Positions 3,822-50,175 of a DNA stretch of 64,000 nt are shown here, piece by piece; position 1 is the stretch's first letter; each line of letters begins with the position of its first letter. This stretch comes from Patescibacteria group bacterium (GTDB taxonomy: Bacteria; Patescibacteriota; Microgenomatia; 2-02-FULL-39-11): contig JAMCUI010000004.1 in the NCBI GenBank assembly GCA_023379265.1, forward strand, positions 9,273-73,272, read 5' to 3'. Position numbers and translations under genes: made by a program. A model generated the notes under the pieces. That model saw only the letters and a list, made by a program, of their open reading frames with translations. It was not told the origin of the DNA and ran no database searches.

Positions 3822-6002
3822 GTGAAAAATAATATCATTTATCTAGTATTCATTTTTTTACTTATCCTTATCGTTTATTCACTAACCACTAGACTATTTG
3901 AAAAAACGCTTTTTGTCTCCACAAACGGAAGTGATAACAATTCCGGAACTTTCGGCAAACCGCTCAGATCCATTCAATATGCAGTAAATATCGCTACTGC
4001 CGGCACCACAATCCATATCCTACCCGGTACTTACAGGGAGTCTGTCACGGTATCAAACAGCGGAACAAAAGACTCTCCAATCACTTTATATGTTGCCCCT
4101 TCTGATAGAGGAAAAGTGATACTTGAAGGATCCGAACTTTCATCACAAATGATATGGCATAAATGCAATACCGTGAATTGTAAAAAAATTCCAGTGAATT
4201 CCGGACATGAAGTTTTTTTTACTCATCTGGATTGGAATGAAATACCTTATCAGATATATGAGAATATATCGGGAAGAGATTTATACCCATTACGTCTTGC
4301 TAGAACTCCAAATTATAACGTCACAACAGATTGGAAATTTCACCAGAACTGGTGGACCTCAGAAGATTCCTCTGAAAATAATAAAGTTTTGTCTGATCAC
4401 AAGCTGAAAAACATAGGTGATATCAACGGCGCTACAATAAACCTGATTGACGGTGGAACGCGTTGCGGAGAATTTTCATATTCCAGAGTTATAGATAATT
4501 TCAACGGACAAAAAGGCCAAATCATCTTTGATCAACCGGTAGGCTTCTCAATTTTCGGCTCCCAAGAAAACGGTATAAGCCAGTACACGAAATATTATGT
4601 CGAAAATAAACCACAATTTCTGGATGAAAAAGGGGAATGGTTCTATGACAAGAAAAGTGGAATACTTTATATCTGGCCATTGGAAGAGAAAAACCCAAAA
4701 AATCTTGACATCGAAATTTCAAAGAGATCCTTTGGATTGAACTTATCAAAAGCTTCAAACTTTATAGTAGACGGTTTGACTATCAAATATATAAACGAAT
4801 CAGATATATTTCACAACGAATCCTCTGCAGCAATCATTATTAATCCAGAAGAAAACTCTCAAGTTAAAAATATCAAGTTAGTGAACTTAGACATCAATCA
4901 TTCGTCAGCCGGAATTACTATCTCCAGCCCCTATAACTTATCTAGAGTAGAAAACATATCACTTACCAAAAGCAAAATTGACTATATTGATAAAAATGTC
5001 TTCGTTGCTGCTGCATCTTCACAATTCCCTTCAAATGTATCCAATATAACCATTAACGACTCTGATTTTGGATTTTCATCATTCCAAAACAACGATATCG
5101 GTCTTAGTTTTGTCAGAGTAAGCAACATCAAACTTGTAAATAATAAAATCCACGATTTTGCCAATTATCCAATCGTTTTTACCGGTTTTGAGAGAAATGA
5201 CGGTACCGTAAAAAACTTAGTAATAGAAAATAATTTTATAAATAATAATTGTCTAAATCTTTCAGCCTGTAGCTCGATAAAAATATATGGAGGAAAATTT
5301 TTAGATACACTCATAAAAAATAACATCATGGAGAATAATAAGGGTTGGTCTTATTGCCAGGAAGCAAAATATGGACAAGGTTATGCTCATGGAATATTCA
5401 TCAGCAATGCCAGCGGAATTACCGTCCAGAATAATATAATCTTAAACATGTCTGACATCGGTATTGAAATTTACCCGAGGCAAATTCCTACTACCAACAA
5501 CTACATTATAAATAACTTGATTAGTCGTTCTTCAACCGGAATAAATCTTGGTAACCCAAAAGATGCATTTGATTTGAATAAACTTGCACACAACACCAGA
5601 CATGACGGAGATATAATAAAAAATAACATTTTTCTGAATAATAATACCGCAATTAATATCGATCCAGCTGATTCAAACAGTATAGCAATTGACTACAGTG
5701 CCTATATCAACAATAAAAATGATATGATTTTCAGAAATGATCCGTTGATTTCTTTAAATTCCATTAGAAATGCTTTTCCTAAATGGGACATTCATTCTAT
5801 AGAAACAAATACTCAAGCATTCAGAAATGCAAAAAGTGGTGATTTTAATCTTTACTACACCAGTCCGCTTCGAGGAAAAGGAGAACCGCAATCCGGCAAT
5901 CCGTGGATCCAAGCCAACTTGTTTCTCCTGGGTCTGGCAAATGATATCGGTCCCTGCAAATTTTCCTGGGTGGGAAATACGTGCGCTGTTAACGGAAACT
6001 AG
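3822..6002 (+). CDS. right-handed parallel beta-helix repeat protein (pectin-lyase fold) with an N-terminal signal/anchor
   Basis: N-terminal hydrophobic segment MKNNIIYLVFIFLLILIVYSL. Repeated NNxIxNN-type beta-helix rungs (IENNFINNN, IKNNIMENN, VQNNIILN, IINNLISR, IKNNIFLNNN). Confidence 0.7.
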   Translation: MKNNIIYLVFIFLLILIVYSLTTRLFEKTLFVSTNGSDNNSGTFGKPLRSIQYAVNIATAGTTIHILPGTYRESVTVSNSGTKDSPITLYVAPSDRGKVILEGSELSSQMIWHKCNTVNCKKIPVNSGHEVFFTHLDWNEIPYQIYENISGRDLYPLRLARTPNYNVTTDWKFHQNWWTSEDSSENNKVLSDHKLKNIGDINGATINLIDGGTRCGEFSYSRVIDNFNGQKGQIIFDQPVGFSIFGSQENGISQYTKYYVENKPQFLDEKGEWFYDKKSGILYIWPLEEKNPKNLDIEISKRSFGLNLSKASNFIVDGLTIKYINESDIFHNESSAAIIINPEENSQVKNIKLVNLDINHSSAGITISSPYNLSRVENISLTKSKIDYIDKNVFVAAASSQFPSNVSNITINDSDFGFSSFQNNDIGLSFVRVSNIKLVNNKIHDFANYPIVFTGFERNDGTVKNLVIENNFINNNCLNLSACSSIKIYGGKFLDTLIKNNIMENNKGWSYCQEAKYGQGYAHGIFISNASGITVQNNIILNMSDIGIEIYPRQIPTTNNYIINNLISRSSTGINLGNPKDAFDLNKLAHNTRHDGDIIKNNIFLNNNTAINIDPADSNSIAIDYSAYINNKNDMIFRNDPLISLNSIRNAFPKWDIHSIETNTQAFRNAKSGDFNLYYTSPLRGKGEPQSGNPWIQANLFLLGLANDIGPCKFSWVGNTCAVNGN

Positions 6003-11698: not shown

Positions 11699-12229
11699 CT
11701 ACTGGTAATTCCTCAGAGATATCGTGCTTTGGTATTCCAAAGTATTATAACTACCAGGAGTGGGGGTCAAAGATGTCCCGCTGTAATTTACGGTATAGTT
11801 TATAAAAACATACTTTGGGGAAGTGGGAGGAGTAGGGCAGACTATGCGGAAATTGCATCCTGATACATCAACCTTGGAACTGGTCAGGGATACCATTCCT
11901 GTTGGGGTAGGATTCGGCCAGGCGGAAATAGAAGATATTTGATTTCCGCTGCTACAGTCAAACATTGTCGTGTTTCCATCGGGATTCGTAATGGTAAGCT
12001 GGCTGGTGTTTGAATTACATTGTATTTGCTGTATGTCTACAGCATTCCTTACCATAGATTCCATCACCGACATTGCAAAATCACCGTTTTGTTTAATTTC
12101 CTTCAGAGTCTCGCTTCTTGTCTGGGATTTTATTCCCAAAATAAATATCTGGGTGGTAATGATACCGATTATCCCAACCAAAGTGGTAACTATCAAAAGC
12201 TCTATCAGTGTAAAACCATTTTCTCTCAT
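11699..12229 (-). CDS. type IV pilin / pseudopilin with prepilin-type N-terminal cleavage/methylation domain
   Basis: N-terminus MRENGFTLIELLIVTTLVGIIGI has the G|FTLIE prepilin motif followed by a hydrophobic helix. Confidence 0.75.
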   Translation of the reverse strand: MRENGFTLIELLIVTTLVGIIGIITTQIFILGIKSQTRSETLKEIKQNGDFAMSVMESMVRNAVDIQQIQCNSNTSQLTITNPDGNTTMFDCSSGNQISSISAWPNPTPTGMVSLTSSKVDVSGCNFRIVCPTPPTSPKYVFINYTVNYSGTSLTPTPGSYNTLEYQSTISLRNYQ

Positions 12230-12258
12230 AATTATCTTATTTTCATATATTCTTTATC

Positions 12259-12762
12259 TTAATTCCAATTAGTCAAACATGACGATATGTCCACTTCAGG
12301 AGCTGGGGTTACACCCACAGCTCCTTTAGACCATTCCACTTTTGCCGTAATCTTATACGCCACGGGAGTGGGAGTTATTGTTGCTACCGGTAACGGACAG
12401 TCAGCGGGATTAGAACCGGAAATTTGAAGCGATTGGCCATAAGTTCCTGTCGGTGTAACCGGAACCGGAGTAAGGCCGCTGTTTATGTAGCAAGAGGAAA
12501 AACAGTTAGTAGTGAGAGAGCCCAGTCCGCCCGAATCCCGTATCACTCTTGCACGCTCGATCTGTTGGTTGGCAAGATTGGTAGCGATGCTCTTATTTTC
12601 CGAAAAGATAGAATTTCGTATGGCATATAGTTCAATAGCTGTAATACCGGACATAAACAGTATGATAAGAGTCAGCGCTACCAATACTTCAATCAGTGTT
12701 TGACCGCGTGTTATCAGACCTGCCGAGTCGGAAGCAACTCCTGTGCTAACATCAATGATCAT
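12259..12762 (-). CDS. pilin-like protein with an extended leader (MIIDVSTGVASDSAGLITRG|QTLIEVLVAL)
   Basis: G-QTLIE variant of the prepilin motif plus a hydrophobic helix. Its 5' end lies inside the 78-bp tandem repeat. Confidence 0.6.
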   Translation of the reverse strand: MIIDVSTGVASDSAGLITRGQTLIEVLVALTLIILFMSGITAIELYAIRNSIFSENKSIATNLANQQIERARVIRDSGGLGSLTTNCFSSCYINSGLTPVPVTPTGTYGQSLQISGSNPADCPLPVATITPTPVAYKITAKVEWSKGAVGVTPAPEVDISSCLTNWN

Positions 12763-12975
12763 AAACTTTAATATCTAAGGACACGGTGTTATCAGACCTG
12801 CCGAGTCGGAAGCAACTCCTGTGCTAACATCAATGATCATAAACTTTAATATCTAAGGACACGGTGTTATCAGACCTGCCGAGTCGGAAGCAACTCCTGT
12901 GCTAACATCAATGATCATAAACTTTAATATCTAAGGACACGGTGTTATCAGACCTGCCGAGTCGGAAGCAACTCC
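12709..12975. repeat. 78-bp tandem repeat, about 3.4 identical copies, spanning the junction of two pilin genes
   Basis: Unit starts at 12709, 12787, 12865 and 12943. Each unit carries, on the - strand, TAG, a 12-nt spacer and ATG with 20 further codons, giving the mini-ORF MIIDVSTGVASDSAGLITPCP*. Confidence 0.9.
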
Positions 12976-13527
12976 GGCAGAATTTATACTAATTCTGTAA
13001 TACCCGTCAGCCGGGGCATTTTTATTACTCATACAAATTACCGCCGGCTGACTTACTGTCCCAGAGTTTTCGGTAAACAATATCCTTGCTGTATCAGGCG
13101 GTGTAATATAAGGCGTCACTAAAACATCCTTGGAGAAAGTAAAATTTTGTGTAGAAAACTGGCTGCTACCACACTTGCCATATATTTGTTTATTTGTAAA
13201 GTCGACATACCACCCGTCCCATCCTGTTGAAGAGTCAGGAGAGCAATTGCATACGCTGCAGTCTATCTCACCATTATATGACCTGCTTTGGGCATCCCTC
13301 AAAATGTTTTTCATATTCTGACCTGCGGAAATGACCGTCTGTTTCTGGTTTAGTGTGGCATAGCCGGCAAAACTTACACCCAAAAGAAGAAATATGACCG
13401 TGACAACCACCAGGATCTCAATGAGGGTAAAACCACTCAACAGTTGTGAGTTGTTCCGCCGCTTGCGTGATCCCGCTGAGGCGGGATGAGTTGTAAGTTG
13501 TGAGTTATTTTTTATTTTTTGAGTCAT
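12931..13527 (-). CDS. type IV pilin-like protein with a long leader (…NNSQLLSG|FTLIEILVVV)
   Basis: Prepilin motif and hydrophobic helix. The C-terminus ...SAGVASDSAGLITPCP* is part of the 78-bp repeat. Confidence 0.75.
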   Translation of the reverse strand: MTQKIKNNSQLTTHPASAGSRKRRNNSQLLSGFTLIEILVVVTVIFLLLGVSFAGYATLNQKQTVISAGQNMKNILRDAQSRSYNGEIDCSVCNCSPDSSTGWDGWYVDFTNKQIYGKCGSSQFSTQNFTFSKDVLVTPYITPPDTARILFTENSGTVSQPAVICMSNKNAPADGYYRISINSAGVASDSAGLITPCP

Positions 13528-13573
13528 TTTATAAACTATTAACTAACAACCAACAACTTACAACCCAACCAAA

Positions 13574-14089
13574 TTAAGGATTTGTCACCTGATAATTACA
13601 ATTACTGCCACATAAAGTGCCCCCGGAATCGTTACAATAGGCACTTGAGGCACCGGTACTGCCGTTTTCCAAATGTGCACACAAATCGTAGTGCAATGAG
13701 TCAGTCTGGAGGTAATAATAAGCAAATGCAGGCGATTTGGGATCGGAAGGATACTTCGCTATATAACTGCTGTCCAGACTCGGTATGCCTGTAGTAGTAG
13801 GCAAGGGATAAGATGAATTTTCGGACTTATAGATCTCAAGGGCGGAGCGCACCTGTTCCAGATCGGATTTGCGCAAAGCATCCCGGCCGTTTCTTGTCAT
13901 GGCTTGATATCCGGTCACGCCGATTGTAGACAAAAGGGCAACAATTGTAGCTGCCACCAGAATCTCAATAAGTGTAAAACCGAACATCGGTTGTAAGTGG
14001 TGGGTGGTGGGCCCGCCGGCCGGCTCGTCTCGCGGTGAAGCGGGCGAGGCAGTTTGCGGGTAAACTCTGTTTGATTTGTTCTTTGACAT
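13574..14089 (-). CDS. type IV pilin-like protein (…MFG|FTLIEILVAATIV)
   Basis: Prepilin motif. I trimmed the start to Met9 of the track ORF so that it does not overlap the upstream stop at 14092-14094. The true start is uncertain. Confidence 0.65.
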   Translation of the reverse strand: MSKNKSNRVYPQTASPASPRDEPAGGPTTHHLQPMFGFTLIEILVAATIVALLSTIGVTGYQAMTRNGRDALRKSDLEQVRSALEIYKSENSSYPLPTTTGIPSLDSSYIAKYPSDPKSPAFAYYYLQTDSLHYDLCAHLENGSTGASSAYCNDSGGTLCGSNCNYQVTNP

Positions 14090-14091
14090 GT

Positions 14092-14580
14092 TTACTGCTG
14101 ATTTGAAACGCAAAAATAATTTGGGGACTCAGACTCAAGTCCTGTGCAGACGGTATAGGATGAGGTAGTACAGTTTGAAGCGCCGGGAGTCGGCCCACAG
14201 TAATATGGAGTCCCCTGGGGGTCAACCGGAACAGCGGGCATAATGCTTATCGGTGGAGTGGGACAATTTATAGCAGTAAAAAAGCTGTTTCCGCCTCCGG
14301 CAGGAGTGATATAAGCATAACCGCAAACGGAATAATACTGCTCCAGTGCAGATTGAACTTCCTTAATATCACTTTTTCTTTTGGCATCCCGTCCTTTTTT
14401 CTGGGCGCTTGAGAAGGATGTCAGGCCCATGGCGATAAGTACCGTAATTATGGAAATAACAACCAACAACTCAAGCAGGGTAAAACCATAGTTATCGTTA
14501 TGGATAGATTTCGATTTATAGTCTGAGACTGTTAATCTACCAAAGATTTGAGATTTGAGATTTGAGATTTGAGATTTCAT
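14092..14580 (-). CDS. type IV pilin-like protein (MKSQISNLKSQIFGRLTVSDYKSKSIHNDNYG|FTLLELLVV)
   Basis: Prepilin motif. The start is taken at the ATG immediately after the upstream gene's stop; ATG 14592 is an alternative. The leader contains a heptanucleotide repeat. Confidence 0.65.
   Translation of the reverse strand: MKSQISNLKSQIFGRLTVSDYKSKSIHNDNYGFTLLELLVVISIITVLIAMGLTSFSSAQKKGRDAKRKSDIKEVQSALEQYYSVCGYAYITPAGGGNSFFTAINCPTPPISIMPAVPVDPQGTPYYCGPTPGASNCTTSSYTVCTGLESESPNYFCVSNQQ
14545..14577. repeat. heptanucleotide simple-sequence repeat (GATTTGA)x4.7 on the + strand, equal to (TCTCAAA)n on the coding strand, in the first codons of a pilin gene
   Basis: gatttgagatttgagatttgagatttgagattt read directly from the sequence. 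Confidence 0.9.
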
Positions 14581-14581
14581 A

Positions 14582-15064
14582 TTAAGGTTCATGTATAGTA
14601 TAACTGTTTCCGGTACTAGTATTGCAAGGAGAAACAGGAGTGAGGTCTTTATCCGGATCCACAGCATTCTCAAGACAGGCAGAAAGAGCATATTGTGACG
14701 TACTGCCGGGATTATATATATAAGGTGTGCCTGTCAGGCTTCCCGGATCGCACGGAACTTTTCGCAAGTAAATATTTCCGCTACAGTTGGAGCTTGAAGA
14801 CCAGCACTGTCCGCATATGGAAGCCGGAAATGCGCCCGTTGTGGGATATCGCTGATATTGATCATTTAATTTATATAGTTCGAGGGCTTTTTGGATATTT
14901 GATAAATCACCTTTCCTTTCAGTGTCTCTAGCCCTTTCACGGGCTCCCATGAAATTGGGAAAGAGTACAGCAATTACCATGGAAATTATAGCTATCACCA
15001 CAAGAAGCTCGATAAGGGTAAAACCTGAATTCAGTTGTGAGTTGTTTTTTATTTTATTTATCAT
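14582..15064 (-). CDS. type IV pilin (MINKIKNNSQLNSG|FTLIELLVVIAIISMVIAVLF)
   Basis: Canonical prepilin leader and cleavage motif. C-terminal Cys pair. Confidence 0.85.
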   Translation of the reverse strand: MINKIKNNSQLNSGFTLIELLVVIAIISMVIAVLFPNFMGARERARDTERKGDLSNIQKALELYKLNDQYQRYPTTGAFPASICGQCWSSSSNCSGNIYLRKVPCDPGSLTGTPYIYNPGSTSQYALSACLENAVDPDKDLTPVSPCNTSTGNSYTIHEP

Positions 15065-15107
15065 GTCGTGAAACTGGCTACCTGCTACTTTCTACATATT
15101 ACATAAA

Positions 15108-15617
15108 TCACGGCGTAATATTTGGACTTGAAATTCCATAGTTGTAATACACTGAGCCACCAACTGGACAGGCGACTGTCGGTATAATTTGGGAGTCTTC
15201 CTGGTTCTCCAAATGGGCATACAGCTTGTAATAAGTGCCGGACGCATCAGACGAATAACAATAAGCATATCCCGGGGAAGCCGGATCCTGGGGGAGTTTC
15301 TGCATATACACTACAGATGAGTTACCGGGATTTGACAAAGGTGACCCCCAGGCGGGAAACTGTGTTTCGTTGGGATAAGACCTCATATCATTATAATAAA
15401 GCTCAAGAGACTTGGAGGTAAGTGAAAGATCCTGTTTTCGCCTGGCATCTCTACCTTTTATGATAGAAGTGAAGAAATTTCCCCAAAGAGCACCACTGAC
15501 AATTGCTATAATTGCCATAGCTATAATAAGTTCCAGGAGTGAAAAACCTGACAGATAAATTTTATTTTTTTCCTTCCTGTTTATCCTAACCGTCTTCAAT
15601 TTTTCTCTTGTGACCAT
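15108..15617 (-). CDS. type IV pilin-like protein (…KIYLSG|FSLLELIIAMAIIAIV)
   Basis: Prepilin motif and hydrophobic helix. Confidence 0.75.
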   Translation of the reverse strand: MVTREKLKTVRINRKEKNKIYLSGFSLLELIIAMAIIAIVSGALWGNFFTSIIKGRDARRKQDLSLTSKSLELYYNDMRSYPNETQFPAWGSPLSNPGNSSVVYMQKLPQDPASPGYAYCYSSDASGTYYKLYAHLENQEDSQIIPTVACPVGGSVYYNYGISSPNITP

Positions 15618-35471: not shown

Positions 35472-35628
35472 AAGATTTTACAGATCTACCGGACCTGTTA
35501 ATGTAGCATGTCTCTTTGAAAATCTAGTTAAAGCGTGTAAGATATAGAAGATTTTACAGATCTACCGGACCTGTTAATGTAGCATGTCTCTTTGAAAATC
35601 TAGTTAAAGCGTGTAAGATATAGAAGAT
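35415..35628. repeat. 76-bp tandem repeat x2.8 whose first copy is the 3' end of folD
   Basis: Unit starts at 35415, 35491 and 35567. The last copy is truncated. Confidence 0.9.
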
Positions 35629-36284
35629 TAATACCTCTTATCAATAAACTCCATTTTCCCGTTATCAATCTTTAAGTACTGACCATAACCCCAGCGAATA
35701 AAACCTGTATTTATATATCTCTCCCTTAAATTAAACTCAGCCAGATGACTGTGTCCGCATACCAAAACAGTATTTTCCGGAAGATTGCTATTTAACCATT
35801 TTCTCATCCGGTTATTCTGACTTTTATAATAACTAAGTAGCGGCTTGCCCAAAATGGCCAAAGGTATCTTTTCCCGCAAAAACTGGTAAGCAGCCGTCAG
35901 TATCCGGCCATGAGGCAACCACAAATACCTGTCGTCAGCAGCTGGAGCTATACGGCAACCGTGCTCTATATGCAGGATTTTACCTCCGGCTTTCATTTTA
36001 TATATGTTCCGCTGGCTGACCGAAAAAAGATTCAAACTTTTATCAGACAGGCTTTTCCGGTCATGGTTACCAAAAAGATAAATAGTTTCCCGGGATTTTA
36101 ACAAAGGGAATAATTTTTTCCAGCCGCTTTCGAGAAAATCATCAAGGCTAACAATATACCCATCCCAGAAATCGCCATTTATTATCACTCTATCGGCAGG
36201 AGTGATAAGTCTGGTAAGGAAATCAAATTTAGTCTTTTCAAACTTTTTTGTCAGATGAGTATCTGAAAACACTACGGAAATCAT
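35628..36284 (-). CDS. calcineurin-like metallophosphoesterase
   Basis: VFSDTHL, INGDFWD, GNHD and CGHSH motifs. I chose the internal Met (MISVVFSDTHL) to avoid overlap with the xer gene. Confidence 0.7.
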   Translation of the reverse strand: MISVVFSDTHLTKKFEKTKFDFLTRLITPADRVIINGDFWDGYIVSLDDFLESGWKKLFPLLKSRETIYLFGNHDRKSLSDKSLNLFSVSQRNIYKMKAGGKILHIEHGCRIAPAADDRYLWLPHGRILTAAYQFLREKIPLAILGKPLLSYYKSQNNRMRKWLNSNLPENTVLVCGHSHLAEFNLRERYINTGFIRWGYGQYLKIDNGKMEFIDKRY

Positions 36285-36300
36285 ATGCAAACGTGAAAAG

Positions 36301-37245
36301 TTACTTGCGGTGAAATTTTTGATGAACCTGGCGCAGCTGCGGGTTAGTGACGTGTGTATATATCTGGGTTGTCGAAATATTTTTGTGCCCAAGCATCTCC
36401 TGGATCGAGCGCAAATCAGCTCCGGCTGACAATAAATCTGTGGCAAATGAATGTCTCAGCCCGTGCGGTGTAATCTTTACAGGCAACCTGGCTTTTTTGA
36501 CATATTTCTCCACAATCCTTTGGACTGAACGTACATTCAGTCTTGCCGCCTCATTTTCCCGTCCCGGTGAAGCTTTCCTGCCCGCATAACGAATAAATAA
36601 TGGCGAAAACGTATCCTCCCTTTCCTTCAAGTAGCGCTCAAGCCACAGGACTGCTGAATCTGACAGAAAGACTACCCTAGGCCGTCCGCCCTTTCCTATC
36701 ACACCAAACTCTTTTCTTTCAAGATTTATGGAGTCGCGGTTGAGCCGCGTCAGTTCGCTCACGCGAAGTCCGGTGCTAAAAAGCACCTCTAATATGGCTT
36801 TATCCCTCATGCCCTGGGGCGTAGAGATATTGGGCATATTCAAAAGCCTTTCAACCATCTCCCGATCAAGAAACTTCAGCGATCTGCTCTCCGCCTTTCC
36901 CAACTCTACTTTTTCAGGATTCAGAGTGGGCTTATCCTGCCTTATAAGAAACCTCAAGAAAGCCCTAAGTGCAATCAGATGATAATTTTGCGTAATGTGT
37001 TTGAGAGTCAGACCGTGGTCATCTGAATATCTGGATAAAAATAACCTGTAATCCCTTACCGTTTCTGCCTTTATTGAGTCTGTATCTGATATAGTAGGGG
37101 ATTGCAAGGCTCCAAATTGCAAAAACCTGTTTAGATAATGCCTGTAGTTCCTGATCGTTAACCTCGAACAATTCCGTTCAAGTTCCAAATAGATCAGAAA
37201 CTGATCAATCGCTTCAGATAGCTTCATTCTTACATTTTGCGACAT
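36301..37245 (-). CDS. tyrosine site-specific recombinase, XerC/XerD family
   Basis: C-terminal HGLRHSFATDLLSAGADLRSIQEMLGHKNISTTQIYTHV carries the R-H-R-Y catalytic signature. Confidence 0.85.
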   Translation of the reverse strand: MSQNVRMKLSEAIDQFLIYLELERNCSRLTIRNYRHYLNRFLQFGALQSPTISDTDSIKAETVRDYRLFLSRYSDDHGLTLKHITQNYHLIALRAFLRFLIRQDKPTLNPEKVELGKAESRSLKFLDREMVERLLNMPNISTPQGMRDKAILEVLFSTGLRVSELTRLNRDSINLERKEFGVIGKGGRPRVVFLSDSAVLWLERYLKEREDTFSPLFIRYAGRKASPGRENEAARLNVRSVQRIVEKYVKKARLPVKITPHGLRHSFATDLLSAGADLRSIQEMLGHKNISTTQIYTHVTNPQLRQVHQKFHRK

Positions 37246-38917
37246 CTATATATATTTGTCAAATTTTATCCGTCTTGAACTCATCTCGATATACTCACGT
37301 AACTTCGGTTTGCAATTGAGTTACTCAGTATATACCCCTCATAAATTGCTTCTGTCCGGGCTGGAAAATCAAAGGAACAAAGTGCCAGATTTGGTTAAAT
37401 TACTTCCGGAATGTCATATCAATACGAAAACGCAACAAACCAGTCAAGAAAATTAAAAAGGTGGAAAATCAGAATCGTTGTCAAAATACAGGTTTTAACC
37501 TTCATTCCTGGCCTCCTATAATCGTTTTTGAGGGCTTTAATTTGATTAGGATGTATATTTAGTCATCTTAACCCTAAAAGGTAAGAACCGTTTTATTTAG
37601 TTTGAGAAAATAGCATTTTACATAATAGAAGTTTTGACGGACCTATCGTAAATTTGACGGATAACTGATTTATAAAGAAAAAGAGAATTATAAATAAGAA
37701 AGACAATTCAACAACTTAATTTATAAATATCACTACGAAAATCTAAGCAGATGAATATGGTAAAAATTGGCACTTCTCCGGAGATCCGTGCGTATATATG
37801 TCGCAAAAGATATATTGTGCGACAATATAGCAATCCATATCCCCGGCCTTTTTTTAACGAAAGATTCTCTTCTTTACCTATATCATAAAAATGAGAATAA
37901 ATACCGGGGAAGGTAGAGACTCATACCGGTCAAATCTGCCAGGAATAAATAAACCGTTCGTCATCGAATAACCAATTAACAGTGCTTGCTGGACAGAATA
38001 TGTTTGGTCCATAGAGAGGCTTTCGGTTTTTTTCTTCTCTACACTATTTAGATCTATATAACGCTCTAAACTCATATATCTGAAGCTAAAATTATTATCT
38101 TCTACTTGCATTAAATACGGAATAGAGCGTCATCAAAATCTAAACAACTATTTTCGTGGCTAATATACTCTATTTATCCGATTATCTATATGGAATTATA
38201 CTCAATTTAGCGCATAACAACGCTCTGATTTCTAATTTTTGAGGCTAATCTTTCATTATGCCTTTTCTGTACACGTATTACTAGAGAGCATTATGACGCT
38301 CTAATCCTTTTATTATGAAGCTAAGTATTTTTCGACATTTCTTATTCGTTACTTTAATGTAAGAGTAAAAATAAGTCCTATAGTTTAGGGCTTCGCAATA
38401 GTCCAAATATTTAATTCTAAAGCTAAATCAACTTTCATTTATTATATGAATATCTATGGTATAGAGCATAATGATGCTCCATTCTCTCTTTATTTAAGCT
38501 AATAGGAAAACTGTAAACCTCTATACGGATAATTGCTATAAAATATAGTTTAGGGCTTTATTAGGCTCCATAGCAATCACGTTGAGGCTAATTTTTTGGT
38601 ATTTTAGGATAATAAAGATAGTATAGAAGGTCATGATGCTCTAAACTAACAATGTTATGCGTAATTAATTTGTTCAGTCAGGCATATGTGTTTTCACTTA
38701 CACTTTGAGAGTGATACCGTGAAAAGTCGGTACAAATATTCGTGAAAAGTTATCCACATTACTATAGGATACTATAGGCTTTTGTACCATATCAAACTAT
38801 ATCACTACTCTACTTCCCCATTCCCGCCACAACTTTTAAATTTCTTTGGACTAAATAAATTCTTGATAATAAAACTTCCTAATTCTAAATTGGAAATTAA
38901 AAATTGAAATTAACCGG
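37246..38917. other. 1.67-kb ORF-free AT-rich region with a degenerate palindromic repeat family, one perfect DnaA box and an inverted duplicate of the xer gene 5' end
   Basis: No ORF of 80 aa or more in any frame. Imperfect palindromes of form tAGAGCnnnATGAyGCTCtaa recur about nine times between 38060 and 38650. TTATCCACA at 38750-38758. Confidence 0.6.
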
Positions 38918-39763
38918 TCAACCCCAAGCTGTAGTAACAAAAGCCACCAGGAAGGTAAAAATAAAGGCAAAAATATATTCCCGCACCGTGTTGGCAAAAA
39001 GCCTATCCTGGATTTTCTGCTGCAATATGCCTACCATCGCATAAAAACCAGACGCCACAAGAAGAGACACTGTAGATATCTGGATCGGCCAGAAAGAAAT
39101 TACCATTGCCAATTCCCCTACTAATATTCCGATAATGACGGAATATGATATTGCCTCATTTGTAAGTTTTGATTCTAAGTTTACTGACCAAATAGACTGC
39201 AGAGACAAAAGTCCTGCAAAAGGAGACAATATAAGCATATTTGCCCAAAATGACATCCTGAAGGAGAAAACTATACTAGTCAAAAGAAACATGACAATAA
39301 GAGTAATAAGAAGCCCAATGCTTTGCGCCGCCCGCAAAAGTTGTATAGATCTCTCTGCGGCTACGTTATATATATTTTCTACCAGAAGATAAGCATAAGT
39401 TCCAATAGCAAAAACAGTTGCTATGGTCAACCTGATAATCCAGCGTGCTGGAAGCAGATAATAAAAAAGTGATACCGAGGCTGTAAAAACAACAGGAAGT
39501 ATAAATAAAAGCAACCACTCTGTTCCTCTTATGTCTTCAGCAAGAGACCAGGCAGTCAAAATGTACGACGCAACAGCAAGAAGCCCAACCATATAAAACC
39601 TGTAATCCTCCCAAACAAGCTGGGTCAAAAGAAGACCTCCCGATAAAATGAGCGTCTGGAGGGCAAACCTCTGTCTTTTAGAAAGGGAGTCCAATAAATC
39701 CCAATGCGGAATAACCCTCTCAAAACGTTTCTTCTTCTTTGGTTTTATATGAAAGTAGTTCAA
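38918..39763 (-). CDS. hypothetical polytopic membrane protein
   Basis: 281 aa with about 7 TM helices. No motif recognised. Confidence 0.5.
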   Translation of the reverse strand: MNYFHIKPKKKKRFERVIPHWDLLDSLSKRQRFALQTLILSGGLLLTQLVWEDYRFYMVGLLAVASYILTAWSLAEDIRGTEWLLLFILPVVFTASVSLFYYLLPARWIIRLTIATVFAIGTYAYLLVENIYNVAAERSIQLLRAAQSIGLLITLIVMFLLTSIVFSFRMSFWANMLILSPFAGLLSLQSIWSVNLESKLTNEAISYSVIIGILVGELAMVISFWPIQISTVSLLVASGFYAMVGILQQKIQDRLFANTVREYIFAFIFTFLVAFVTTAWG

Positions 39764-50088: not shown

Positions 50089-50175
50089 GCCGCGATGGTG
50101 GAATTGGCAGACACGCAGCTCTCAAAAAGCTGTGAGCCCAAAGCTCATGTCGGTTCGACTCCGACTCGCGGCACA
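50089..50175 (+). tRNA. tRNA-Leu(CAA), type II (long variable arm)
   Basis: Acceptor GCCGCGA/TCGCGGC, D-arm GTGG..CAC, anticodon stem CAGCT/AGCTG with loop CTCAAAA (anticodon CAA), variable-arm stem GAGC/GCTC, T-arm GTCGG-TTCGACT-CCGAC. Confidence 0.85.

Follow-up and report, generated by a model that had tools for sequence, protein, structure and literature searches.

The intergenic region at positions 37246–38917 of a 64,000-nucleotide stretch of a Patescibacteria contig (JAMCUI010000004.1; the whole stretch is henceforth referred to as the window) is best explained as a conserved composite cis-acting locus of Gottesmanbacteria chromosomes that is built around Xer site-specific recombination, a reading to which we assign a probability of roughly 55%. 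The region lies between a xer recombinase gene and a gene for a DUF5656 membrane protein and is AT-rich, with a GC content of 32% compared to about 40% for the window. The window was also placed in contig JAMDBJ010000009.1 of the metagenome-assembled genome GCA_023487465.1. By sequence comparison, the relatives of the window are Candidatus Gottesmanbacteria, of the Microgenomates group in the Candidate Phyla Radiation (CPR). Alignments identified three strongly conserved parts of the gap, namely a motif cluster beside DUF5656 (Block A), a repeat array, and a palindrome with the features of a dif-type Xer site (Block C). The locus and its immediate borders are composed of the following features:

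36301–37227, minus strand: xer gene, 308 aa, encoding a XerC/XerD/XerA-type tyrosine recombinase
37234–37262, minus strand: sigma-70-like xer promoter (TTGACA, 17 nt, CAAAAT; 10/12 matches in a promoter scan)
37235–37244, no strand assigned: lone Xer arm, TGTCGCAAAA on the minus strand, overlapping the -10 element of the xer promoter
37266–37400, no strand assigned: hypervariable spacer immediately upstream of the xer promoter, 59% identical to the closest relative with 34 gap columns, compared to about 85–89% for the rest of the gap
37798–37825, no strand assigned: probable dif-type Xer core site (Block C), reading TTGTCGCACAA-TATATC-TTTTGCGACAT on the minus strand, 28 bp in an 11-6-11 layout
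38020–38033, minus strand: conserved AAAAAA(A/C)CCGAAA box, found after the last array unit in seven genomes
38046–38680, minus strand: array of eight units of about 75 bp, each with a TTAGCYTCAAAA box, about 10–12 nt, and a 26-bp imperfect palindrome GTTTAGAGCRTYATRAWGCTCTAAAC
38718–38806, minus strand: Block A motif cluster, comprising GTGATATAGTTTGATAT, two copies of CCTATAGTA, TGTGGATAA (the DnaA box) and two copies of CTTTTCACG
38918–39763, minus strand: DUF5656 membrane-protein gene (Pfam PF18900), the conserved neighbour across the gap from xer

The 28-bp palindrome of Block C is very probably a dif-type Xer site, judging by its sequence and conservation. It consists of two inverted arms of 11 bp, differing from each other at two positions, around a 6-bp centre. 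The arms are invariant in eight genome loci and carry no more than two mismatches in about 25 metagenome loci, while the centre differs between lineages as TAnnnC; fixed arms around a variable centre are the pattern expected of a tyrosine-recombinase core site. The site has a single match in the window, with 0.01 expected, and is 100% identical to its counterpart in the closest relative (L006), compared to 84–85% identity at the four-fold degenerate sites that served as the neutral yardstick for this pair. Its adjacency to the xer gene is conserved among relatives, and the locus combines the 28-bp, two-arm geometry of a dif site with the presence of a Xer recombinase. In the mechanism proposed by analogy to Xer systems already characterised, recombinase monomers would bind the arms of two aligned dif sites and swap strands across the centre, by which chromosome dimers would be resolved. 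A dif or recombination region served by the neighbouring Xer protein was among the identities offered by the original prediction, which was made from the sequence alone. The recombination region holds, but recombination is assigned to the 28-bp palindrome instead of the repeat family, whose tAGAGC...GCTCta members are unlike Xer arms despite the resemblance once noted in some of them. The inverted copy of the xer start described at the same time is also real as a repeat: a 16-nt inverted repeat with one mismatch joins 37235–37250 to 37793–37808, because the promoter arm pairs with a dif arm, but it is noncoding and its xer-proximal copy lies at 37229–37250 rather than at 37245–37262.

The same site was found in viral contigs of other hosts. 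A 20-base pattern of the dif-type site gave 26 exact matches in IMG/VR contigs of 30–47% GC, and a composition-matched scramble of the pattern gave 0. In seven longer viral contigs, a second copy in direct orientation lies 5.3–5.5 kb from the first, keeps GTCGCACAA-TATATC and carries a right arm of unrelated sequence. Encoded between the full and the hybrid site are a rolling-circle Rep (PF23343, phrog_3419) and a second protein with a P-loop-like GWQGxGKT motif and no Pfam match, and the outer flanks of these elements of about 5.4 kb are the host genes murG and DUF3048. Paired full and hybrid sites are the known footprint of elements integrating at dif through host Xer enzymes, and this arrangement has been described for filamentous phages at dif. 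Found around a Rep-encoding element, the pair is a signature of Xer-mediated integration, and the elements of about 5.4 kb appear to have been integrated by Xer at the dif-type site. They resemble integrative mobile elements exploiting Xer (IMEX), such as CTX-phi, in being small rolling-circle-Rep elements without an integrase and in being bounded by one full site and one hybrid in which a single arm and the centre persist. The footprint was seen in the viral contigs of other hosts and not in the window itself. The elements of the IMG/VR contigs (L015–L040) sit beside host genes in low-GC (30–32%) genomes; their host flanks include an ftsQ-like gene, assigned by eye and without a Pfam match, and a repeated GAACA-N5-6-GAACA motif upstream of that gene.

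A dif site located beside its own xer gene is a hallmark of single-recombinase Xer systems, and near-symmetrical inverted arms around a short central region are a further point of likeness between these systems and the locus (PMC5357621). The link between a xer gene and its own short site is shared with XerS/difSL of streptococci and lactococci, XerH/difH of Helicobacter and Campylobacter, and XerA/dif of archaea. Where lineages have two tandem xer genes, the xer leader itself contains a variant site with the same geometry, a placement similar to that of difSL immediately next to xerS. In one such locus (L007, 7616–9938), and also in L064 and L083, the tandem genes encode proteins with 55% and 50% identity to the Xer of the window, and the leader preceding the first of them holds the perfectly symmetrical TTCGTTAAA-TGTATC-TTTAACGAA rather than the canonical site. 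Unlike the XerS and XerH systems, the recombinase at the locus is of the XerC/XerD/XerA type, and unlike the 31-bp difSL, the site has the canonical 28-bp 11-6-11 layout. It also differs from single-recombinase modules in lying about 570 bp from xer, with an extra lone arm in the promoter and a flanking repeat array, and, by strand composition, away from a point of fork convergence. The E. coli dif site reads GGTGCGCATAA-TGTATA-TTATGTTAAAT. Against this sequence, 17 of 28 positions of the window site are identical, including the CGCAnAA core of the left arm, and the two sites share the 28-bp 11-6-11 layout of XerCD/dif. In contrast to E. coli dif, the window site is not at a skew switch and its two arms are nearly identical in sequence, suggestive of a single recombinase in place of a XerC/XerD pair. 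A literature search using the dif sequence string returned nothing but unrelated primers.

The gap is conserved in position as well as in its parts. The order yebC, DUF5656, gap, xer was found in nine reference genomes, where the gap is always ORF-poor (poor in open reading frames) and 760–1780 bp long. The same synteny is present in about 36 of 43 metagenome loci, some of them with a DUF5656 protein only about 30% identical; the metagenome loci were retrieved by a scan with the Block A pattern as the handle. Collinear, weak similarity was detected by nhmmer along the entire gap among relatives. The region was originally described as devoid of ORFs of 80 aa or more, and this is the case: within 37246–38917 the longest ORF is 77 aa (37878–38111, minus strand), followed by one of 66 aa. 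The 77-aa ORF is not a gene, because its reading frame is broken in L006.

The recombinase gene and its promoter belong to the same arrangement. The xer protein contains the Pfam domains Phage_integrase and SAM_1 and is closest, among solved structures, to E. coli XerD (3e-41) and P. abyssi XerA; its score with each of the NCBIfam XerC, XerD and XerA models is under the cut-off of that model. The true start of xer was set at Met7 of the mechanical 314-aa ORF, i.e., at 37227, and the promoter arm was taken as noncoding, because a 46-nt insertion in L006 separates the promoter arm from the ATGAAGCT xer start and because NCBI annotates the protein with 308 aa. This insertion (5996–6039 of L006) repeats a short part of the sequence coding for the xer N terminus (FELERNCS compared to LELERNCS). 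The promoter is 97% identical between the window and L006, compared to about 84–85% at four-fold sites, and TTGAC(A/T)-N14-15-TGTCGCAAAAT is kept upstream of xer in eight related loci. A single Xer arm, TGTCGCAAAAT, surrounds the -10 region of the promoter, a layout shared by the eight loci. In three relatives (L013, L046 and L082), the position of the promoter arm holds GTCGCACAAT, which is exactly of the left-arm type. We infer that xer is autoregulated, in that Xer would bind the lone arm over the -10 region and repress its own transcription.

The slot that separates dif from the promoter arm (about 37263–37797) is poorly constrained and diverges from L006 at approximately the neutral rate. 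Logan contigs from three sequencing runs end at about 37286–37373, within the hypervariable spacer, which suggests heterogeneity at the population level. In distant relatives (L046, L047, L055, L071 and L082), the interval from the full dif site to the lone arm in the xer promoter is filled by 1–2.9 kb of unrelated genes; judged by eye, their products include a glycosyltransferase-like sequence, VIT-family-like membrane proteins and a Y1-transposase-like protein. This interval is possibly a hot spot for insertions. A noncoding block, AAGCCnTTnTAGGGCATTACAGnGGGTCAG, is conserved between dif and xer in L008–L014 and degenerate in the window (about 37500–37530), and, when translated, the L014 copy is similar to the LGH..S motif of tyrosine recombinases. 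This LGH...S-like peptide in an L014 ORF, together with the tandem xer genes of L007, prompted the idea of a decayed second xer gene between dif and xer, which was rejected when relaxed tblastn searches gave chance-level matches only.

The palindromes of the array form a genuine repeat family. Palindrome starts were located at 38046, 38120, 38205, 38281, 38383, 38459, 38548 and 38621, the last palindrome ending at about 38646. The original prediction counted about nine units spaced 60–100 bp apart; the family is real, but eight units are clear, their spacing is 73–102 bp, and the ninth match, at 37911, is weak. A position weight matrix built from the units gave eight matches of at least 22 bits, all of them in the array, and none above 16 bits elsewhere in the 64 kb. 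The palindrome is therefore confined to the array within the window, and conserved units are carried by relatives as well. The companion box reported earlier (rrGCTAAt) was also confirmed, since four of the five window matches to TTAGCYTCA (minus strand) lie inside the array, compared to 1.4 expected by chance. In the unit closest to DUF5656, the TTAGCYTCAAAA box is replaced by TTGAACAnnTTAnTTACGCATAA. Spacings are mostly 73–77 bp, or about seven helical turns, and the sites would consequently face one side of the helix. The lineage of the window has eight units, compared to four or five positionally orthologous units in relatives, and the shorter form is the ancestral one. Orthologous units can be recognized by their marks, with the first carrying TTGAACA...TACGCATAA, one followed by TAACCGAAA and the last followed by AAAAAACCCGAAA. 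A related form of the AAAAAA(A/C)CCGAAA box, AAAAAAATACGAA, occurs in distant relatives.

The array probably consists of protein-binding sites that act at the level of DNA, as indicated by its pattern of substitution. Units are 60–78% identical to each other, and the right half-site of the palindrome is conserved much better than the left. Relative to L006, unit cores are 88% identical while spacers are 81% identical, which is at or below the neutral rate. When the palindromes are treated as stems, Watson-Crick pairs make up only 59% of the total and transversion mismatches 23%, with 89 G.T pairs compared to 80 A.C pairs. The half-site bias, the pair types and the neutral spacers fit DNA binding sites and not structured RNA. 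CIRCE (HrcA), the KorB operator, parS half-sites, CRP sites and integron attC were considered as resemblances and set aside, as their spacing or sequence did not seem to fit.

Block A, at the DUF5656 end of the gap, is conserved in nine of nine genome loci, with TGTGGATA and the second TTTTCACG invariant. The perfect DnaA box noted earlier near 38750 is indeed present: TTATCCACA at 38750–38758 (TGTGGATAA on the minus strand) is the sole perfect copy in the window. Both pairs of direct repeats reported beside it were likewise found, CGTGAAAAGT at 38718–38727 and 38741–38750 (CTTTTCACG on the minus strand) and TACTATAGG at 38760–38768 and 38770–38778. Each CTTTTCACG copy matches seven of nine positions of a relaxed DnaA-box consensus in the opposite orientation. 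Short repeats of the TGATATAG and CCTATA(A/G)T types are part of Block A, their order and orientation change between genomes, and the spacing from TGTGGATA to TTTTCAC varies by 1–2 nt. A conserved peptide (MWITFH...) from ATGTGGATAACTTTTCAC was considered and rejected, as the frame is not kept across the 1–2 nt indels between motifs. These indels indicate that Block A is conserved at the nucleotide level and not as a peptide. Block A is read as a cluster of putative protein-binding sites, at which binding of DnaA is plausible.

GC skew is negative across the whole window, and cumulative skew falls monotonically through the locus. Once the gene-strand effect is separated out, the left side of the gap has a replication component of skew at four-fold sites of -0.13 and the right side one of -0.19. 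The minus strand carries most genes on either side of the locus, a bias that continues for 10 kb past the right window end (+46 kb). Replication forks appear to pass the locus in one direction, from DUF5656 to xer. Since neither strand composition nor gene orientation switches at the locus, it appears to be neither an origin nor a terminus.

Block A, the array, dif and xer keep a constant order and orientation in every locus that has both array and dif. The array is always on the GTCGCACAA-arm side of dif, the arm that is retained by the integrated elements, and the distance from the last unit to dif has a median of 270 bp (interquartile range 237–317; overall about 200–340 bp), while Block A lies 463–1278 bp from dif. 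Together with the non-terminal position of the site, this constancy suggests that the array and Block A direct Xer synapsis. Both would be bound by one or more proteins, giving an architectural nucleoprotein complex that assists or controls synapsis and that could let the dif site work away from the replication terminus. A precedent is provided by cer of ColE1 and psi of pSC101, in which noncoding DNA beside the Xer core binds architectural proteins and controls the outcome independently of FtsK (PMC5357621). The locus resembles cer and psi in that the array always flanks the core on the same side, with modest variation in distance, but differs in being chromosomal and in having 400–600 bp of phased 75-bp repeats where the accessory region of cer is contained within 280 bp. 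The proposal that the array acts as Xer accessory sequences is nonetheless tentative and is the weakest part of the explanation, and several observations weigh against it or against the wider reading. The array is far longer than the cer and psi accessory regions and has no noticed resemblance to ArgR, PepA or ArcA sites. The 200–300 bp between array and dif are not conserved in sequence. Neither the palindrome matrix nor the Block A motifs matched near dif in the host flanks of the viral contigs, where dif sites therefore occur without an array, and a search for the Block A pattern in the viral contigs themselves was also negative. The co-occurrence of Block A and dif in metagenome loci is partly circular, given the search handle. 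The classical position of dif is where replication forks converge, yet here skew sign and gene-strand bias are alike on both sides, from -37 kb to +46 kb; the site either works away from the terminus or is not the dimer-resolution site of the chromosome. Finally, the minus strand folds somewhat better than shuffled sequences (z -3.9, compared to z -2.3 for the plus strand), and a transcript keeps a low weight on account of this residual RNA signal.

An independent role of the array was weighed similarly to the accessory role and is itself doubtful. Here, the array and Block A would merely neighbour dif and serve as a datA/DARS-like site of DnaA titration or reactivation, as a centromere-like or condensin-loading site, or as a fork-pausing site. 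The occurrence of dif without an array in other hosts and the unconstrained DNA between array and dif are as expected on this view, as are the maintained helical phasing and the retention of the perfect DnaA box and two inverted seven-of-nine boxes even where DUF5656 is 30% identical. In E. coli, datA, DARS1 and DARS2 are noncoding chromosomal DnaA-regulatory loci. The likeness lies in an intergenic position away from oriC and in a few DnaA boxes of mixed orientation beside a region bound by nucleoid proteins; in contrast, the locus has one consensus box only, and its neighbouring repeats are a novel palindrome. The lack of further strong DnaA boxes, the absence of par genes in the window, a palindrome that fits no known operator that could be named, and the order, orientation and rough distance to dif kept in every locus with both all count against independence.

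Other explanations of the gap account for less of the evidence. Structured RNA was raised in the original prediction, and an improbable version of it would have one or more minus-strand noncoding RNAs (ncRNAs) start from extended -10-like TGATATAGT motifs in Block A and run through the repeats, with the palindromes as hairpin modules. The folding asymmetry favours such an RNA, as does the excess of G.T over A.C at two stem positions (31 compared to 5 and 37 compared to 9) and a 9-bp stem in distant relatives with two compensatory changes (AGAAACAGT/ACTGTTTCT compared to AGAATCCGT/ACGGATTCT). This stem could be a structured insert or a terminator-like element; in L044, L061 and L072, GC-rich stem-loops are inserted between Block A and dif. 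However, the palindrome halves do not co-vary in an RNA-like manner, the pair types and neutral inter-unit spacers are those given above, and the shifts of motif order and orientation in Block A suit binding sites better than the 5' end of an RNA. Rfam models gave no match at the gathering score in the window or in eight related loci and two chance-level miRNA matches at E ≤ 10, with none in the window gap at that threshold, and ARAGORN identified only a tRNA-Leu at 50089 in the window. The 9-mer likened to the RNase P CR-I core, GTCCGGGCT at 37354–37362, lies in the least conserved segment of the gap and is likewise without an Rfam match even at E ≤ 10, and the RNase P suggestion is refuted. 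Less probable still is that the 28-bp palindrome and the promoter arm are operators of a dimeric transcription factor controlling xer. A palindrome with a half-site over the -10 region is a classic operator layout, but the same 28 bp, centre included, are present in unrelated contigs of 30–47% GC without a nearby xer, and the full-plus-hybrid pairs around an integrated element would be unexplained. A replication origin, of the oriC or iteron type with the palindromes as initiator-binding iterons beside the DnaA box, was another of the earlier suggestions and is very improbable. An iteron-type plasmid origin consists of tandem 17–22 bp iterons next to a rep gene, and the units of about 75 bp with 26-bp palindromes, the lack of a rep gene and the housekeeping flanks do not match this description. 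The conserved perfect DnaA box, the AT-rich gap and the presence of holB, gyrB, gyrA and dnaB nearby are origin-like, and origins of assembled genomes are said to typically hold a small repeat array (10.1101/808410). The skew minimum and divergent genes of an oriC are nevertheless missing at the locus: skew is monotonic, its replication component is negative on both sides and genes are co-directional. The DnaA boxes, one perfect and two seven-of-nine, form no cluster of strong boxes, dnaA, dnaN and rep are absent within 26–37 kb, and a dif site is adjacent. In the gap, with its GC content of 32%, no defined unwinding element was seen. The gap is least of all likely to be decayed mobile or repeat DNA, whether a miniature inverted-repeat transposable element (MITE) bounded by ttttgcgacat repeats, as suggested earlier, or a degenerate orphan CRISPR array. 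An inverted repeat does bound about 550 bp, assemblies break near 37286–37373, and the unit dimensions (about 46 nt conserved and about 28 nt variable) are CRISPR-like. The inverted repeat, however, consists of Xer arms, one in dif and one in the promoter; the segment occurs once in the window, and its synteny holds in all relatives. The variable slot bounded by the dif site and the promoter arm thus explains the MITE-like appearance without a transposon. Units that are 60–78% identical yet positionally orthologous between genomes do not suit a CRISPR array, and the window ORFs scanned against Pfam or NCBIfam yielded neither a cas nor a transposase gene.

The gene neighbourhood of the locus is as follows:

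plus strand, in order: holB, gyrB, H+-PPase, gyrA, folD
minus strand, next in order: metallophosphoesterase gene, xer, gap, DUF5656, yebC

Further flanking housekeeping genes include type IV pilus genes, dnaB, hisS and a gene for an RF-1-family release factor, and because of these flanks the window is chromosome and not a mobile element. The mechanical 272-aa metallophosphoesterase ORF (35628–36446) overlaps the end of xer by 146 nt, an artefact that arose because the ORF caller took the first TTG; the public annotation has a 218-aa product with a downstream start. Relative to the window, L006 has a 96-nt insertion (4242–4340) immediately 3' of the DUF5656 stop codon that includes a GC-rich hairpin-like sequence (GGAAGCCCCGCGCATAAGGACGGGGAGCTTC). 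Six small genes (160–200 aa) at 11699–15617, downstream of the prepilin peptidase and pilus ATPase genes, have four-fold-site GC skew near zero or positive, unlike the rest of the window, and could represent variable pilin-like genes with a separate origin.

Characterised examples of Xer/dif systems exist in proteobacteria, firmicutes, epsilon-proteobacteria and archaea, and literature searches found no description of one for the Candidate Phyla Radiation. The locus supplies a concrete and widely conserved CPR dif sequence, together with evidence that rolling-circle-Rep elements integrate there, and it is an apparent exception to the terminus rule for dif. The array and DnaA-box cluster next to dif also provide a defined DNA bait for new DNA-binding proteins of the CPR. 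A more speculative proposal, which we regard as unlikely, is that Gottesmanbacteria and related CPR bacteria resolve dimers at an intra-replichore dif site, with directionality derived from the array and DnaA-box cluster rather than from FtsK, through a plasmid-style topological filter that is possibly coupled to DnaA and, through it, to replication status. If the array is indeed a recombination accessory region, the locus would represent a second way of making chromosome dimer resolution directional.

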